A DNA stretch of 64,000 nucleotides from a virus, in the IMG/VR virus record IMGVR_UViG_3300045988_182214. One strand, given 5' to 3'. The notes under the pieces are model-generated. The model worked only from the letters and a program-made list of their open reading frames with translations, was not told where the DNA came from and did not search any database. Position numbers and translations under genes: made by a program. This document shows, piece by piece, positions 8,308-48,822 of this stretch; within the stretch, counting starts at the first letter, position 1, and every line of letters begins with the position of its first letter.

Positions 8308-8366
8308 TATTATCGAAGAATAGCAAGAAAACTCCATTCGACAATAGTCGATTGTGAATAATTCAT
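8308..8366 (+). repeat. dispersed structured element, copy 1
   Basis: TATTATCGAAGAATAGCAAGAAAACTCCATTCGACAATAGTCGATTGTGAATAATTCAT; 8-bp hairpin CATTCGAC/GTCGATTG; followed by a terminator at 8392..8425. Confidence 0.6.
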
Positions 8367-8391
8367 AAAATAATTTAGAAATTAATATTTT

Positions 8392-8425
8392 AGCAGGAGA
8401 TAAGCAAGCATCTCCTGCTTTGTTA
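8392..8425 (+). terminator. candidate intrinsic terminator
   Basis: Hairpin AGCAGGAGA/TCTCCTGCT followed by TTTGTTATAT (interrupted T-run). Confidence 0.45.
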
Positions 8426-8464
8426 TATCATCATGAATTTAGAATCTCCTTTCATTAATGATTT

Positions 8465-8478
8465 TTTTTCTGTCATAT
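8465..8478 (+). promoter_or_regulatory. promoter-like motif TTTTCTGTCATAT
   Basis: 35 nt upstream of ATG 8513. Confidence 0.55.
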
Positions 8479-8512
8479 CCTTTATATCAAAAATTTAAAG
8501 GAGGAATTTGTT

Positions 8513-8785
8513 ATGAATAAATTCGATTTTACGCCATGGAGAAAGGCTTTAGCAGTAGAAGTTAACAAAAATAAGGAGGATAATTACCCATATGTATGCA
8601 AAAATGTTTCTTCATCAGAAGGCATTGAATTAATAAACAGTGAAGAAAATGTTTTTTATTTAGCTCCTGGAGATCATTTATATGCTACAAAGGATCTGGT
8701 TGTTGAATCCCTTAAAGCAATTGGCGGATATTGCAGCAATGCGCATATTGAAGGTAATGAAGTTGTTGTGGAGGCAGTTGCATGA
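8513..8785 (+). CDS. hypothetical protein
   Basis: SD AAGGAGG upstream; its stop overlaps the next start (ATGA). Confidence 0.5.
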   Translation: MNKFDFTPWRKALAVEVNKNKEDNYPYVCKNVSSSEGIELINSEENVFYLAPGDHLYATKDLVVESLKAIGGYCSNAHIEGNEVVVEAVA

Positions 8786-9720
8786 GATATGATAGACAAG
8801 CTATTGTAGATAGTATTAATATGCTAGATGTTATAAACAAGCTTAATATTAAAATTTCAAATGCTACTGCAGGAACGGATATAGTTACTGGGAATAAACG
8901 AGAAATTATATGTCCGTTTCATAATGATAAACATTTTGGTTCAGCAAGTATATATGTGGATTCAAAAAAGCATTTTAAGGGAATCCATTGCTTTGCTTGT
9001 GGAGAAAGTTGGAATGTAATTAAACTGGTCCAATTAAAAACAGGGCTAAATTATGGACAGACATTAAATTGGCTTGCTGAATTATGTCCTGGAGATAAGT
9101 CAAATTACGCATTAGAAGAAGCAAATAATAAATCATCTTGGGGTATTGTTTCTATAGATTCTTCAGGAAAGTTATCTGTTAAAAATAATAATTCTAATGA
9201 AGAAAAATCTAAAGCCATTGACAATCCTATCAAAAATATATTTACATCTGAAGACTTAAAATTAATAGGAATTCAGGATTATCCATTAAATATATTTGAT
9301 AAAAATGGTTCTATAATAGATTGTTTGCAATATGAACCGTCTATAATTGATATACCGGATAATTGTGTTGCAGAAAAGGATTATGTTTATAGTACAGATA
9401 AGAAAGCTTCAAATGTAAAATTTGACGAAACTCTTGAAGCCGTTTGGTTAATAAAAAAAAATGGCATTAACTCAAGATTTACATTCAATGATTTGATTCA
9501 GGAAAATCCAGATTGTGCAGTAAATTTGGCTTGTACACGAATTGTTTATCTAATTAAAGATAAACAGGTTATCTTGAATAAATTAGCAGGTTCTTCAAAT
9601 AAAATGTTAGTTAATGTTGTTCATTTAACGAAAAAAGAAATAAAGAGACTTAAAGAATTATATAACAAAATCATGAATGCATGGCTTAAAACTGAAGAAT
9701 TAAAAATTGAATATATTTAA
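8782..9720 (+). CDS. CHC2 zinc-finger protein (DnaG primase-type zinc finger)
   Basis: ICPFHNDKHFGSASIYVDSKKHFKGIHCFACGESWNVIKLV fits the C-x2-H...C-x2-C primase zinc-finger pattern; no TOPRIM domain recognised. Confidence 0.5.
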   Translation: MRYDRQAIVDSINMLDVINKLNIKISNATAGTDIVTGNKREIICPFHNDKHFGSASIYVDSKKHFKGIHCFACGESWNVIKLVQLKTGLNYGQTLNWLAELCPGDKSNYALEEANNKSSWGIVSIDSSGKLSVKNNNSNEEKSKAIDNPIKNIFTSEDLKLIGIQDYPLNIFDKNGSIIDCLQYEPSIIDIPDNCVAEKDYVYSTDKKASNVKFDETLEAVWLIKKNGINSRFTFNDLIQENPDCAVNLACTRIVYLIKDKQVILNKLAGSSNKMLVNVVHLTKKEIKRLKELYNKIMNAWLKTEELKIEYI

Positions 9721-9785
9721 TTGTGTTAAATGCATTTCTATATTAATAAATAGAAATGCATTTTTTGTTTATCTTATTTTATTTT

Positions 9786-9795
9786 TCAGTCATAT
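9786..9795 (+). promoter_or_regulatory. promoter-like motif variant TCAGTCATAT
   Basis: 36 nt upstream of ATG 9831. Confidence 0.45.
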
Positions 9796-9830
9796 ATAAG
9801 ATAAATCAATTTAAAAGGAGGACATACAGT

Positions 9831-46293: not shown

Positions 46294-46468
46294 ATTAGTT
46301 TTTTACAATGTTTTACCATAAAATAATTATAATTAAGTCAAGAAATAAAATTGAAGAACTAAATTATGATTAAAAAGACAATAGACCTGATAAATAAAGA
46401 TATAAAGCTTTTTCTGAACGGGATAAAAAAACAGCAAAGCTTAAAAAACATATGAAGGAGAATTTTTT

Positions 46469-46942
46469 ATGAATGGTTATGAAAAGATTTCAGATGAATC
46501 AAAAAGACAGGAAAAAGTCAATAGATTAAAGAGTAAGATACTGACTGATATAAATAAAAAGATAGATGTATGTAAACGGGAGTTACATTCAGATACTACT
46601 TCAGATGAAGATTATTCTTTTTGGGTATACAGATATTTTTATCTGTTAGAACTAAAAAAATATATTGAAGATAAATATACATTTATGTGTTGGACATATG
46701 AATATAAAGATAAAGATATTAGGATTTATATAATAAAGGATCTTTATCTTGATATCTGGCTTCAGGATGATTATCCATTTGTTAATACTTTTTTGTATAA
46801 CTTAGAATTTGAGACAGAGATAAAATGTAATTACAGTAATATATATTCTTATCTGAATGATAATTATTTCGGTTATAATTTTACAGATATAGTTGATGAA
46901 GTCTTATATAAGCAAAAGCTTCAGAAAAACTGCCATGAGTAA
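46469..46942 (+). CDS. hypothetical protein
   Basis: SD AAGGAG upstream. Confidence 0.5.
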   Translation: MNGYEKISDESKRQEKVNRLKSKILTDINKKIDVCKRELHSDTTSDEDYSFWVYRYFYLLELKKYIEDKYTFMCWTYEYKDKDIRIYIIKDLYLDIWLQDDYPFVNTFLYNLEFETEIKCNYSNIYSYLNDNYFGYNFTDIVDEVLYKQKLQKNCHE

Positions 46943-47029
46943 TTAGTCATGCAAGATGAGCAGCTACGAAGTAAATGTAAGAGAAGAATAAACAAATAAG
47001 AATTATTGGCTTCATTAGGAGGTAAAGTA

Positions 47030-47413
47030 TTGGGACGATTATGGGAAAAAGTAGAAAATAAGTTAAATAAAAGTGGTCGAAAATGGAAAGAAAGTGAATA
47101 CATACCATATAGATGTGCTGAACTATTTTGTGAAAAATGCGGTAAGAGTATGGGTGTACAAGATATTATATGCACCGATTTGCGAACACTTATATACTGC
47201 AATGCTTGTGTTAAACCGTATATACGACAAGTACCATATAATTTGGCAGACGATAAAGAGATAGTTTTTGATAATGGTTTAACCATTGAAATCAAATATA
47301 AGGACAATTATTATCATGACCTGACTTGTAATAAGATTTGTTATTTTAATAAAAAAGGAAGATATATCAAGATTAAAGGAAAAACTTATTACTTAAATAT
47401 TAATCAAAAATAG
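47030..47413 (+). CDS. Cys-rich (Zn-binding) protein
   Basis: TTG start 7 nt after GGAGGT (in frame with ORF-track start 47006); CAELFCEKCG ... CNAC. Confidence 0.4.
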   Translation: MGRLWEKVENKLNKSGRKWKESEYIPYRCAELFCEKCGKSMGVQDIICTDLRTLIYCNACVKPYIRQVPYNLADDKEIVFDNGLTIEIKYKDNYYHDLTCNKICYFNKKGRYIKIKGKTYYLNINQK

Positions 47414-47451
47414 TACCAAGAAATTTCGATTTTTTATGAGGAGAAAAATTT

Positions 47452-48189
47452 ATGAGTATTGAGTTAAAGGATGCCAGACATGAACTGGATATTTTAGAAA
47501 ATTTTATTAATAACCCTGAATTAATTATGTCTGATTTATCCGTATACGGAATAAGCGATTATAATTTTTTATTTAAGAACATAATTGTTAATGGTAAAAC
47601 ATTTTATGCTTCATTAATAGAATATCTGAAGCAGGCTGAAGTATTTAATAATGATGATATATTTTTAACGCCTTATTCAGATGTTGATAATGTAACGGTT
47701 AAGATTTCTTCATTTGACGAATTTCGCAGTCAAAATATTATGTGCATAGATTTCATAAATCATACTTACAAGATTATTGACGATTGCATCAAATATTATA
47801 ATAAAATAATGAATGATGAACCTGAGTATGAGCCTTATGAGATACAGGATATTTTTAAAAGATACGAAAATTATACATTTAAAAAGAGACTGGCTAATGC
47901 ACGACATTGTTTATTTAACAAAGATAAGACATGCAGTGTCAGGATATCTGATTTCTTTTTCAGCTTATTTGTGTCTAAGCAGTATTTAAAAAAGATATTT
48001 GATAAGGAATATAAAAGAGCTGAAGAAGCAAATAAATGTTTAAAAAAGAGTTATGATAAAGATATAGAACGGCAGAAACTATATATCCAGAAAGCTCCTG
48101 AGCAGATACTTAAAATAAAACAGAAGCAGAAAGAGATTGCTAAATACCTGTCTAAATACGGATTTAAAGAAATAATAAAGGATAATTAA
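47452..48189 (+). CDS. hypothetical protein
   Basis: SD GAGGAG upstream. Confidence 0.5.
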   Translation: MSIELKDARHELDILENFINNPELIMSDLSVYGISDYNFLFKNIIVNGKTFYASLIEYLKQAEVFNNDDIFLTPYSDVDNVTVKISSFDEFRSQNIMCIDFINHTYKIIDDCIKYYNKIMNDEPEYEPYEIQDIFKRYENYTFKKRLANARHCLFNKDKTCSVRISDFFFSLFVSKQYLKKIFDKEYKRAEEANKCLKKSYDKDIERQKLYIQKAPEQILKIKQKQKEIAKYLSKYGFKEIIKDN

Positions 48190-48356
48190 ATAATATATGG
48201 GAAAAGTTAAAAGAAAAATGCGGCCACAGCCCCCTAAATGGTGGATGGTGGATAATGACAATTGTTGGTTCTGTAAAAATAGGAATAATTGTGGAAGCTG
48301 TAAATTATTAAAAAAACAGGCTGCAATAGCTGTTAATATAAGGAGAAATAATAATT

Positions 48357-48608
48357 ATGAAGACACTTAATACAATAAATGAACTAATAGAAAAAGCAGA
48401 ATCAGAAAATGAAAGACGTATATTAGATACAGTAAAAAATACTTTAATAGGAGAAGTTAAAGAAGCCTCTAATGAGATGTCTGCTTGCAGTTGGTGGACT
48501 GGGGCTACATATGATGATGACGAATGTTTGAATAATAATAATAAAGAAGTAGTTATATCTGTAGACAAGGCTGTTGATATCGTTGAGAGTATTATCGCAA
48601 TCAAGTAA
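48357..48608 (+). CDS. small acidic protein, paralog of 28090..28359
   Basis: See 28090; its 3' end overlaps dispersed element copy 5. Confidence 0.5.
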   Translation: MKTLNTINELIEKAESENERRILDTVKNTLIGEVKEASNEMSACSWWTGATYDDDECLNNNNKEVVISVDKAVDIVESIIAIK

Positions 48609-48650
48609 AAAAACTCCATTCAACATTAGTTGATTGTGAGATGAATTGCA
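48590..48650 (+). repeat. dispersed structured element, copy 5
   Basis: TATTATCGCAATCAAGTAAAAAAACTCCATTCAACATTAGTTGATTGTGAGATGAATTGCA; the hairpin keeps pairing through a compensatory CAAC/GTTG change. Confidence 0.55.
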
Positions 48651-48779
48651 CAATAATCTAATTTTAAAGTATTTCCAAATATAAAAGGATAGGATCAAGG
48701 GATAGTAGCATCCAATATGCTGTAACGATTGCGTAATGTAATTATTACAGGGTTACTTACATGTTGAAAAAATATGTAA

Positions 48780-48822
48780 CATAGAAACTTCATCTGACTA
48801 ATGTCGGTTGTGAGTAGTTCAT
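48780..48822 (+). repeat. dispersed structured element, copy 6 (3' core only)
   Basis: CATAGAAACTTCATCTGACTAATGTCGGTTGTGAGTAGTTCAT. Confidence 0.55.

Follow-up and report, generated by a model that had tools for sequence, protein, structure and literature searches.

Several mobile elements leave short repeats behind in genomes: repetitive extragenic palindromic sequences and bacterial interspersed mosaic elements (REP/BIME) are short intergenic hairpin repeats mobilised by RAYT (Y1 HUH) transposases, and solo long terminal repeats (LTRs) are short relics that remain when the direct repeats at the termini of a mobile element recombine. Palindrome-associated transposable elements (PATEs) have been defined as elements too short to hold a transposase gene, with IS605-like palindromes near their termini and with neither inverted terminal repeats (ITRs) nor duplication of the target (PMC3119063). 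In Haloquadratum walsbyi, repeat-mediated deletion between the near-terminal palindromes has shortened IS1341-type elements of ~1,500 bp to terminal-only PATEs of 52 bp, and there are hints of continued movement of these short forms (Dyall-Smith et al. 2011, PMC3119063). PATEs adjoining TnpB elements have also been reported, and the guide of TnpB omega RNA corresponds to the DNA that directly flanks the right end (Meers et al. 2023, doi 10.1101/2023.03.14.532601). The left cleavage site (CL) of IS608, TTAC, lies 19 nt 5' of the left imperfect palindrome (IPL), with AAAG as left guide (GL), and the right cleavage site (CR) is 10 nt 3' of the right palindrome (IPR) (PMC3201880); integration into the template of the lagging strand is the rule for the IS200/IS605 family (PMC5027513). 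Here we analyze six copies of a hairpin-forming repeat in a stretch of 64,000 nt from IMG/VR virus record IMGVR_UViG_3300045988_182214, the whole of which is referred to as the window. We conclude that these repeats are very probably non-autonomous derivatives of IS200/IS605-family (TnpB) elements, comprising one PATE and four terminal-only PATEs, and that the copies appear to be without function for the phage.

Six copies of a hairpin-forming repeat

The window (~29% GC) is an AT-rich phage region in which virtually all genes are on the plus strand. An earlier note on this DNA had proposed six intergenic copies of a structured element, which might represent a family of small RNAs (sRNAs) and elements of 5' untranslated regions (5'-UTRs). 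A covariance model was built from the six copies and used to scan both strands of the window, which returned six matches at the coordinates claimed, all on the plus strand and scoring 66-83 bits, with the next best match at 18.8 bits. Using the core CGACAATAGTCG with up to two mismatches, five matches were found in the window versus 0.92 expected, and these corresponded to three of the plus-strand copies together with reverse-strand readings of the palindromic core. While the sequence of all six copies is present, copies 5 and 6 are not independent: they are the left end (LE) and the right end (RE) of one 227-nt element, and the description of the repeats as all intergenic fails for this element, which interrupts the open reading frame (ORF) at 48357. 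The insertions are the following, with the spans of copies 1-4 given without the flanking TTAT target:

8310..8313, plus strand: TTAT target motif (transposon-adjacent motif, TAM) at copy 1; TTAT lies directly 5' of the element in 25 of the 29 distinct left flanks of the family
8314..8366, plus strand: copy 1, a 53-nt terminal-only PATE in which the hairpin is flanked by the LE 5' part and by an RE tail with a final TCAT (covariance model, 83.2 bits)
10385..10388, plus strand: TTAT target motif at copy 2
10389..10441, plus strand: copy 2, a terminal-only PATE with the guide mutated to AAAG (76.1 bits)
26464..26467, plus strand: TTAT target motif at copy 3
26468..26519, plus strand: copy 3, a 52-nt terminal-only PATE with TCAT mutated to TCAA (75.8 bits)
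45519..45522, plus strand: TTAT target motif at copy 4, 3 nt after the promoter-like TCTGTCATAT (45506-45515)
45523..45575, plus strand: copy 4, a terminal-only PATE with a chimeric, mismatched hairpin (71.5 bits)
48357..48595, plus strand: 5' part of the interrupted ORF, whose annotated stop (48606-48608) is supplied by the element
48592..48595, plus strand: TTAT target inside ORF 48357, in the codons ATT AT/A; the empty allele of related locus L016 reads GAGAGTATTAT^AACCG
48596..48822, plus strand: 227-nt gene-less PATE, copy 5 (LE) plus copy 6 (RE), an exact insertion/deletion difference with respect to L016
48596..48649, plus strand: LE, formed by CGCAATCAAGTAAAAAAA, the hairpin at 48613-48640 and the LE-specific ATGAATTGC, matching the LE of the full-length elements in L056, L095, L092, L063, L061, L064 and L022
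48666..48822, plus strand: RE with a remnant of the tnpB 3' end, the putative omega-RNA scaffold region, with the terminal hairpin at 48787-48815 and ending in TCAT
48823..48916, plus strand: stranded 3' part of the ORF, beginning with the last base of the split codon (48823), which 30 sense codons (ITAAKIYGEGGYQDKEILINCSQIVSVEKYL) and the stop follow at 48824-48916; the ORF is continuous in L016

The central hairpin that had been described exists, although its length was given as 8 bp and is actually 11-12 bp with a bulged base (ACTCCA-T-TCGAC / GTCGA-T-TG-t-GAGT). Pairing is maintained at 94% over 56 distinct family members, with double changes at three pairs, which agrees with the proposal that the hairpin covaries and functions in single-stranded nucleic acid, and is not a duplex protein-binding site. 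The stem of copy 3 is CCCC/GGGG in the window and CTCC/GAG in its orthologues in L012, L096 and L106. Among the copies in general, the loops vary (AATA, TAAT, ATTA, AAAA). In copy 4 the hairpin is barely stable (minimum free energy -3.3 kcal/mol, z = +0.8); it combines a 5' arm, CCATTCAAC, similar to the LE of copy 5 with an RE-type 3' arm, ATCGGTTG.

The repeats are the ends of a TnpB insertion sequence

A scan of metagenome contigs yielded at least 120 loci, mostly from the human gut (designated here by L and a number), and the covariance-model search of such contigs that had been suggested as a check confirmed 104 matches among those listed. Three classes can be distinguished. The LE type reads TTAT^CG..AGCAAGAAAACTCCA-hairpin-TTGTGAG followed by ATGAATTGC, as in copy 5, and the RE type reads ..ACATGTAACATAGAAACTCCA-hairpin-GTTGTGAG followed by TAGTTCAT^, as in copy 6, while in the short form, that of copies 1-4, a single hairpin stands between the LE 5' part and the RE tail. 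LE and RE are ~1,521 nt apart in L056, L095, L092, L063, L061 and L064, and 2,062 nt apart in L022. The interval between them codes for a protein of 459-462 amino acids (aa) that matches Pfam OrfB_IS605 (3.6e-17) and Cas12f1-like_TNB, as well as NCBIfam guided_TnpB (136.8 bits, cutoff 100); the interval in L022 also encodes, on the strand opposite tnpB, a 153-aa protein matching Y1_Tnp (1.2e-32) and transpos_IS200 (1e-34). Eight full-length tnpB copies lie between LE and RE, with 79-100% amino-acid identity to the copy in L056; most full-length copies sampled are tnpB-only (IS1341 type), tnpA being present in one 2.06-kb variant. A sequence search of the PDB with TnpB gave no match. LE/RE pairs bound TnpB and TnpA genes, and therefore the repeat corresponds to the ends of an insertion sequence (IS) of the IS200/IS605 family.

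The organization of these ends follows that of the family. Both end classes carry the 11-12-bp bulged subterminal hairpin on the top strand, and the termini of the element as read from the sequence, CGAAGAAT... and ...GTAGTTCAT, do not form inverted repeats. The hairpin is preceded by AAAA in LE and by GAAA in RE; TTAT is located 18 nt 5' of the left hairpin, and TCAT begins 4 nt past the last stem G on the right. In silico, the combinations AAAA/TTAT and GAAA/TCAT fit the guide-cleavage pairing rule of IS608, the T/C difference between TTAT and TCAT being mirrored by the A/G difference of the guides. The right guide (GR) of IS608 is GAAT. The hairpin probably covaries because TnpA reads its single-stranded DNA shape and because the last stem of the putative omega RNA is the same hairpin.

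Searches with tblastn found neither TnpA nor TnpB in the window. Intact tnpB copies are present in close relatives (L063, L095 and L026), the first of which sits on a 399.6-kb contig 98% identical to window positions 1843-10989. The cognate TnpA was found in L022 and in the more distant, more GC-rich loci L023, L042, L136, L141, L154, L190 and L233; several of these distant TnpA-bearing copies are on contigs of Lachnospiraceae metagenome-assembled genomes (MAGs). Among reference genomes, the copies confirmed by the model are confined to MAGs of Lachnospiraceae/Clostridia from gut and rumen, which suggests this clade as the likely host of the phage. Locus L010 and most genome-contig matches outside Clostridia were chance pattern matches not confirmed by the covariance model. 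A second, different IS605 element was observed in L026 (9308-11103), with TnpA (137 aa) and TnpB (368 aa) in tandem; its site corresponds to window positions 42647/42660, where the window is empty, and its ends are related but distinct, the RE terminating in ..GAGTAGTTCAC.

Occupied and empty sites in close relatives

Pairs of empty and occupied alleles exist for the full-length IS, for the 227-nt PATE and for the short form. Three sites that are empty in the window are relevant:

40792..40795, plus strand: empty TTAT in ORF 40706-41050; a full-length tnpB element is found there in L095 and L026, inserted exactly as TTAT^[CG...TTCAT]^AAAAAAG
17905..17915, plus strand: empty site TTAT-TAATTAT; a 53-nt terminal-only copy is present there in relatives (L011 and L009 versus the window, flanks almost fully identical)
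28106..28109, plus strand: empty TTAT in ORF 28090-28359; relatives L051, L106 and L052 have a terminal-only copy with an adjacent deletion of 12 or 181 nt

The full-length element of L095 reads ..AATAATTAT^[CGAAAA...AATTCAT]^AAAAAAGAAATAGG, whereas the window has ..AATAATTATAAAAAAGAAATAGG.. at 40792-40809, so that the insertion is exact and without target duplication. The same holds for the 227-nt PATE: in relative L016 the homologue of ORF 48357 is uninterrupted and runs ...GAGAGTATTAT^AACCGTAGCAAAG... to its normal stop, and the element of the window is an exact insertion 3' of TTAT with no target duplication. At the element's opposite end, 117 of the 171 distinct right flanks obtained in a looser pattern scan correspond to right-end motif matches ending in TCAT.

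Two IMG/VR contigs 93-99% identical to the window were recovered with a degenerate element pattern, and carry copies additional to those of the window. In both, a copy is located between the small ORF 17755-17904 and the ribosome-binding site (RBS) of the kinase gene at 17931, where the window has none. Flanks that are almost fully identical, with the copy present in one genome and absent from the other, indicate that the element is gained or lost over a very short timescale. Other copies, lying in DNA that the window does not cover, were found in L003, after a stop codon and directly 5' of an operon-final terminator, and in L008 and L001, where a promoter motif precedes the copy and the RBS of a helicase gene follows it, while the more distant relatives L014 and L017 had no copy in the 20 kb examined from each. 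The GC skew is positive over the whole window and the six copies are all on the plus strand, an orientation that is compatible, without being conclusive, with integration of the top strand into the template of the lagging strand.

The regions 28090-28359 and 48357-48608 (plus 48823-48916) are small paralogues that both start with MKTLN.IN..I..., and an ATT-AT/A codon pair is where the element hits each of them, the window having one of the insertions and relatives the other. L015, a relative, has the stranded C-terminal segment joined to a different N-terminal part.

The 227-nt PATE and a candidate omega RNA

The right part of the 227-nt PATE (48666-48822) shares 87-90% identity with the final ~157 nt of the full-length copies, and its LE part is 54 nt long. 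Similar composites exist at another site in L033, L044 and L130; the same composite at a different site means that it travelled as one unit. The element's final ~155 nt start at a nearly invariant AAAAGTATTCCCAAAC within the tnpB 3' end and are conserved in sequence, even though the TnpBs are only 53-62% identical as proteins. This region folds into several stems, with compensatory changes at 12 of 36 predicted pairs (14 family members), the PATE of the window having two stem mismatches. Judged by its sequence and predicted fold, the RE region matches the description of a TnpB omega RNA, for which it is a candidate. The first ~20 nt of the stranded ORF segment are predicted to be the omega-RNA guide. 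Neither the 227-nt element nor those of 52-53 nt contain an ORF. A group I or group II intron, which would have restored ORF 48357, was considered for the 227-nt block and rejected, as a terminal G and an initial GUGYG are both missing from all three possible boundary registers.

Proposed origin of the short copies

In the mechanism that we propose, the parent IS would move as single-stranded DNA by 'peel-and-paste': the Y1 HUH transposase TnpA would bind the subterminal hairpins of the top strand and cut 3' of the flanking TTAT on the left and 3' of TCAT on the right, and the excised circle would be reinserted 3' of another TTAT without duplication of the target. The 227-nt PATE consists of the left end and the last ~155 nt (putative omega-RNA scaffold and right end), and has landed in ORF 48357, while the four copies of 52-53 nt would have lost, in a manner reminiscent of solo LTRs, all the DNA between the near-identical LE and RE hairpins. 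The uniform plus orientation could be the outcome of integration of the top strand into the template of the lagging strand, and the intergenic bias could result from TTAT-rich spacers together with selection against insertions in genes.

As read from the sequences, the hairpin regions of LE and RE constitute a direct repeat of ~30 nt, identical at ~26 of 30 positions in L056, and the short form is likely to have arisen by deletion between these repeats, through recombination or slippage. The hairpin of copy 4, a chimera of an LE arm and an RE arm, supports this LE x RE deletion origin. Decay is visible in three of the copies, namely the weak hairpin of copy 4, TCAA in copy 3, and AAAG in place of the AAAA guide in copy 2.

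Several observations nevertheless weigh against the repeats being a simple collection of IS derivatives and deletion scars. The cognate TnpA was found neither in the window nor in phage-derived loci, and the TnpA of the close relative L026 belongs to the different IS605 element with other ends mentioned above. All three short-form sites for which there is an empty allele are inexact, and the DNA up to a downstream TTAT is missing from them: 7 nt (17909-17915) in L011 and L009, 12 nt (28110-28121) in L051, and 181 nt (28110-28290) in L106 and L052. In these copies the left junction is after TTAT and the right flank restarts exactly after a downstream TTAT of the empty allele; L051 and L106/L052 have a common left junction and an almost identical element, and differ in the right junction. 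Such TTAT-to-TTAT losses are not predicted by simple insertion followed by collapse. They look like deletions from the right end to a nearby TTAT, and could derive from TnpA-type adjacent deletion or from tandem insertions plus LE x RE recombination. Near-identical short copies of the GAATTGCAAG subtype are present at two different loci, which hints at mobility or at an unsampled parent, even though a single-hairpin copy with only an LE-type guide should not be excisable in the canonical way. Finally, orthologous short copies diverge more than their flanks, and some of the changes preserve pairing. The short copies L051:60-120, L052:2132-2192, L106:1018-1078 and L011:1224-1284 differ almost only in the loop (AAAT, AATA, TAAT and AAAA, with unchanged stems), and the orthologues of copy 3 themselves differ at 5-6 positions, against ~98% identity of their flanks. 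This excess of divergence could reflect residual constraint or gene conversion between copies, and a mutational hot spot may also account for it. The TTAT-to-TTAT deletions beside short copies represent a small, testable addition to what is known of this transposon family.

Alternative explanations

Some of these points bear on whether the copies of 52-53 nt are active miniature transposons, mobilised in trans by TnpA, instead of immobile deletion scars. We regard this as unlikely, yet deserving of consideration. The GAATTGCAAG subtype is found in relatives at window positions 17908 and 28109, which are unrelated sites, and no full-length parent with this LE subtype was seen among the matches listed, although the scan covers at least 120 loci and parents may be unsampled. 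Mobilisation was also suggested for six strain-specific 52-bp terminal-only PATE insertions (Dyall-Smith et al., PMC3119063), and TnpA tolerates flexible spacing and alternative boundaries (Meers et al., doi 10.1101/2023.03.14.532601). The short copies, however, have one hairpin with only the LE-type guide AAAA, whereas a right boundary at TCAT needs GAAA; the motifs have decayed in several of them, and all three testable sites are inexact.

A more elaborate scenario, which we hold to be improbable, would make the 227-nt PATE a stand-alone omega-RNA gene that guides cleavage of PATE-free alleles and in this way drives its own spread, or would have TnpA-type adjacent deletion eroding genes and moving or creating the 53-nt copies. 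If this were the case, TnpB would be supplied in trans by co-infecting relatives with intact tnpB copies, the cleavage target would be TTAT followed by AACCGCAGCAAAGATATATGG, and the element would spread between co-infecting large phages.

The earlier note had favored a regulatory function, with copies 1 and 4 as sRNAs and copies 2 and 3 as elements in 5'-UTRs. In its broader form, this explanation would be a functional phage RNA family, in which copies 1 and 4 act as sRNAs and copies 2 and 3 as leader or intercistronic regulatory or stability elements, maybe as exapted transposon ends. There are facts in agreement with it: all copies are in the sense of transcription, copy 4 begins just past the promoter-like TCTGTCATAT, copy 2 and the copy in L008 (copy 8) lie between the promoter motif and the RBS, and the hairpin is conserved across the family to the extent indicated above. 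The terminator proposed after copy 1 was confirmed by a terminator scanner at 8392-8419, but the one after copy 4, where the hairpin is degraded, was not called. The distance to the promoter ranges from 3 to ~50 nt, Rfam 15 gave no match at gathering thresholds over the whole window, and relaxed Rfam scans around copy 1 and the full-length RE returned nothing meaningful; a tRNA/tmRNA scan of the window found none. The same sequence forms the ends of an IS of 1.5-2.1 kb encoding TnpB/TnpA, and copies are present or absent between phages 93-99% identical, are found inside ORFs, which they disrupt, carry decayed motifs, and do not appear in the 20-kb stretches of more distant relatives. We therefore do not support the sRNA and 5'-UTR assignments, and give a functional RNA family very little credence. 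The promoters and terminators next to the copies are explained because TTAT-rich intergenic DNA is a tolerated target. An effect of individual copies on neighbouring genes, or an omega RNA of the PATE working with TnpB supplied in trans, is left as a residual possibility.

Least credible of all is that the repeats are cassette-boundary recombination linkers, similar to the promoter-early stem-loop (PeSL) modules of T4 or to integron attC sites, or single-strand initiation (ssi) hairpins. The element boundaries do match breakpoints between related phages, as the earlier note had contemplated as a fallback and as what would speak against its own sRNA proposal, and the hairpin could form in single-stranded DNA; the mechanism is nonetheless the wrong one, since what creates the breakpoints is insertion of the element at TTAT and not exchange of flanking cassettes, the ends belong to a transposon encoding TnpA/TnpB, a Pfam scan of about half of the window proteins gave no integron integrase or other recombinase, and nothing ties the copies to replication origins. 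The same scan of about half of the window ORFs detected no transposase, HNH, GIY-YIG or homing endonuclease.

Other candidates were discarded. Antitermination sites of the nut/put type do not agree with the variable loops and positions (after stops, inside ORFs, before an operon-final terminator) or with the presence/absence polymorphism; a riboswitch-like pairing of the 5' CGCAATC with the 3' arm GATTGTG, seen in copies 2, 3, 5 and 7, fails in the CGAAGAAT subtype; a CRISPR-repeat mimic, based on a likeness to Cas13d repeats, was set aside once the IS ends had been identified; and no R/L boxes matching those of integron attC sites were seen by eye, nor was an integrase found.

The interpretation of the repeats as IS200/IS605-family derivatives removes a false lead, as it illustrates that a conserved, covarying hairpin repeat in intergenic phage DNA can correspond to transposon ends, and the decisive test for such repeats is the comparison of occupied and empty alleles in close relatives. 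It also implies that very large human-gut phages of one lineage are being actively colonised by an IS605/TnpB family whose insertions knock out phage genes; near-identical genomes display its full-length, internally deleted and terminal-only stages.

The phage and the genes around the copies

Contigs of 320-400 kb, among them ERZ1673741.7-NODE-7 (399,572 bp) and OCHC01000010.1 (322,187 bp), share long stretches of 96-98% identity with the window (loci L040, L052, L063, L075, L106 and L129). Because of this, the phage is probably a jumbo or mega-sized gut phage, in which case the 95-103-kb IMG/VR records would represent fragments.

The TCTGTCATAT motif is present at 21 plus-strand sites (22 in all) versus 0.44 expected by chance, including those at 7781, 8469, 10336, 12233, 45506, 45660 and 48972, usually with a T-run 5' and with AAAGGAG and a start codon ~25 nt 3'. 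It is probably a phage-specific promoter class. The phage also encodes a sigma-70-family protein with regions 2 and 4 (34245-35273).

Downstream of copy 2 there is an SPFH/flotillin-like gene (10475-12049), assigned by eye and by the earlier note, and downstream of copy 3 a gene for an RlaP-family nucleotidyltransferase of the RNA-repair pathway (26542-27531). No link was found between the element and the RlaP-family or SPFH-like genes. The gene for the DNA polymerase III alpha subunit (DnaE) is in three pieces (22478-24319, 24694-25452 and 31124-32809). The first break falls within the conserved motif ERVSMP/DIDID, and the gap that follows (24320-24693, 375 nt) contains a sub-threshold group I intron match at 24557-24667 (23.6 bits, E = 0.0008); pieces 2 and 3 are separated by ~5.7 kb of other genes, copy 3 included. 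Tandem paralogues of 349 and 383 aa are encoded at 20033-21082 and 21215-22366, with ~79% identical DNA at both ends (repeat families D6, D15 and D18).

Comparison with known systems

With solo LTRs and REP/BIME sequences the copies in the window share an analogy only, these being different element classes with unrelated sequences. The likeness to IS608 and ISDra2 is closer: all have imperfect subterminal hairpins on the top strand, belong to the 'peel-and-paste' family and show an orientation compatible, though here not conclusively so, with the lagging-strand template. As in IS608, insertion takes place 3' of a tetranucleotide outside the element (TTAC there, TTAT here), the right cleavage motif is inside the element (TCAA there, TCAT here), the hairpin has the left site ~18-19 nt to its 5' side and the right site within a few nt on its 3' side, and a 4-nt guide 5' of each hairpin matches the cleavage site. 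On the other hand, the right cleavage site of IS608 is farther from the hairpin than here and, unlike IS608 and ISDra2, the elements related to the window are mostly tnpB-only, with tnpA in one 2.06-kb variant on the strand opposite tnpB.

ISGst-type TnpB elements resemble those described here in being tnpB-only and non-autonomous, in having minimal gene-less PATEs with common ends, in an omega-RNA scaffold, putative here, that overlaps the RE and the 3' end of tnpB and takes its guide from the flank, and in the logic of the TAM, the transposon-encoded motif (TEM) and the DNA guides; the RE tail ..GAGTAGTTCAT found here resembles the TTCAT/TTCAC motifs of that group. They differ in that omega-RNA expression, TnpB cleavage and homing are experimental results in the ISGst-type elements, whereas here these features are deduced from the conservation of sequence and structure, and in that the window itself lacks tnpB.

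The PATEs of Haloquadratum (HqIRS46 and the 52-bp derivative of ISHwa23) are likewise gene-less derivatives of IS605/IS1341-type TnpB transposons, with near-terminal palindromes, no ITRs, no target duplication and strain-specific presence or absence; in both cases the palindromes form a direct repeat, and deletion, the likely route in the present elements, leads from ~1.5 kb to ~52 bp. The sizes match closely, with 52-53 nt here and an additional intermediate of 227 nt. Those elements reside in a haloarchaeal chromosome and the ones analyzed here in a large AT-rich gut phage, the host of which is probably a member of the Clostridia/Lachnospiraceae; their sequences are unrelated, and the TTAT target, together with the deletions that extend to the next TTAT, are features of the elements in this phage.

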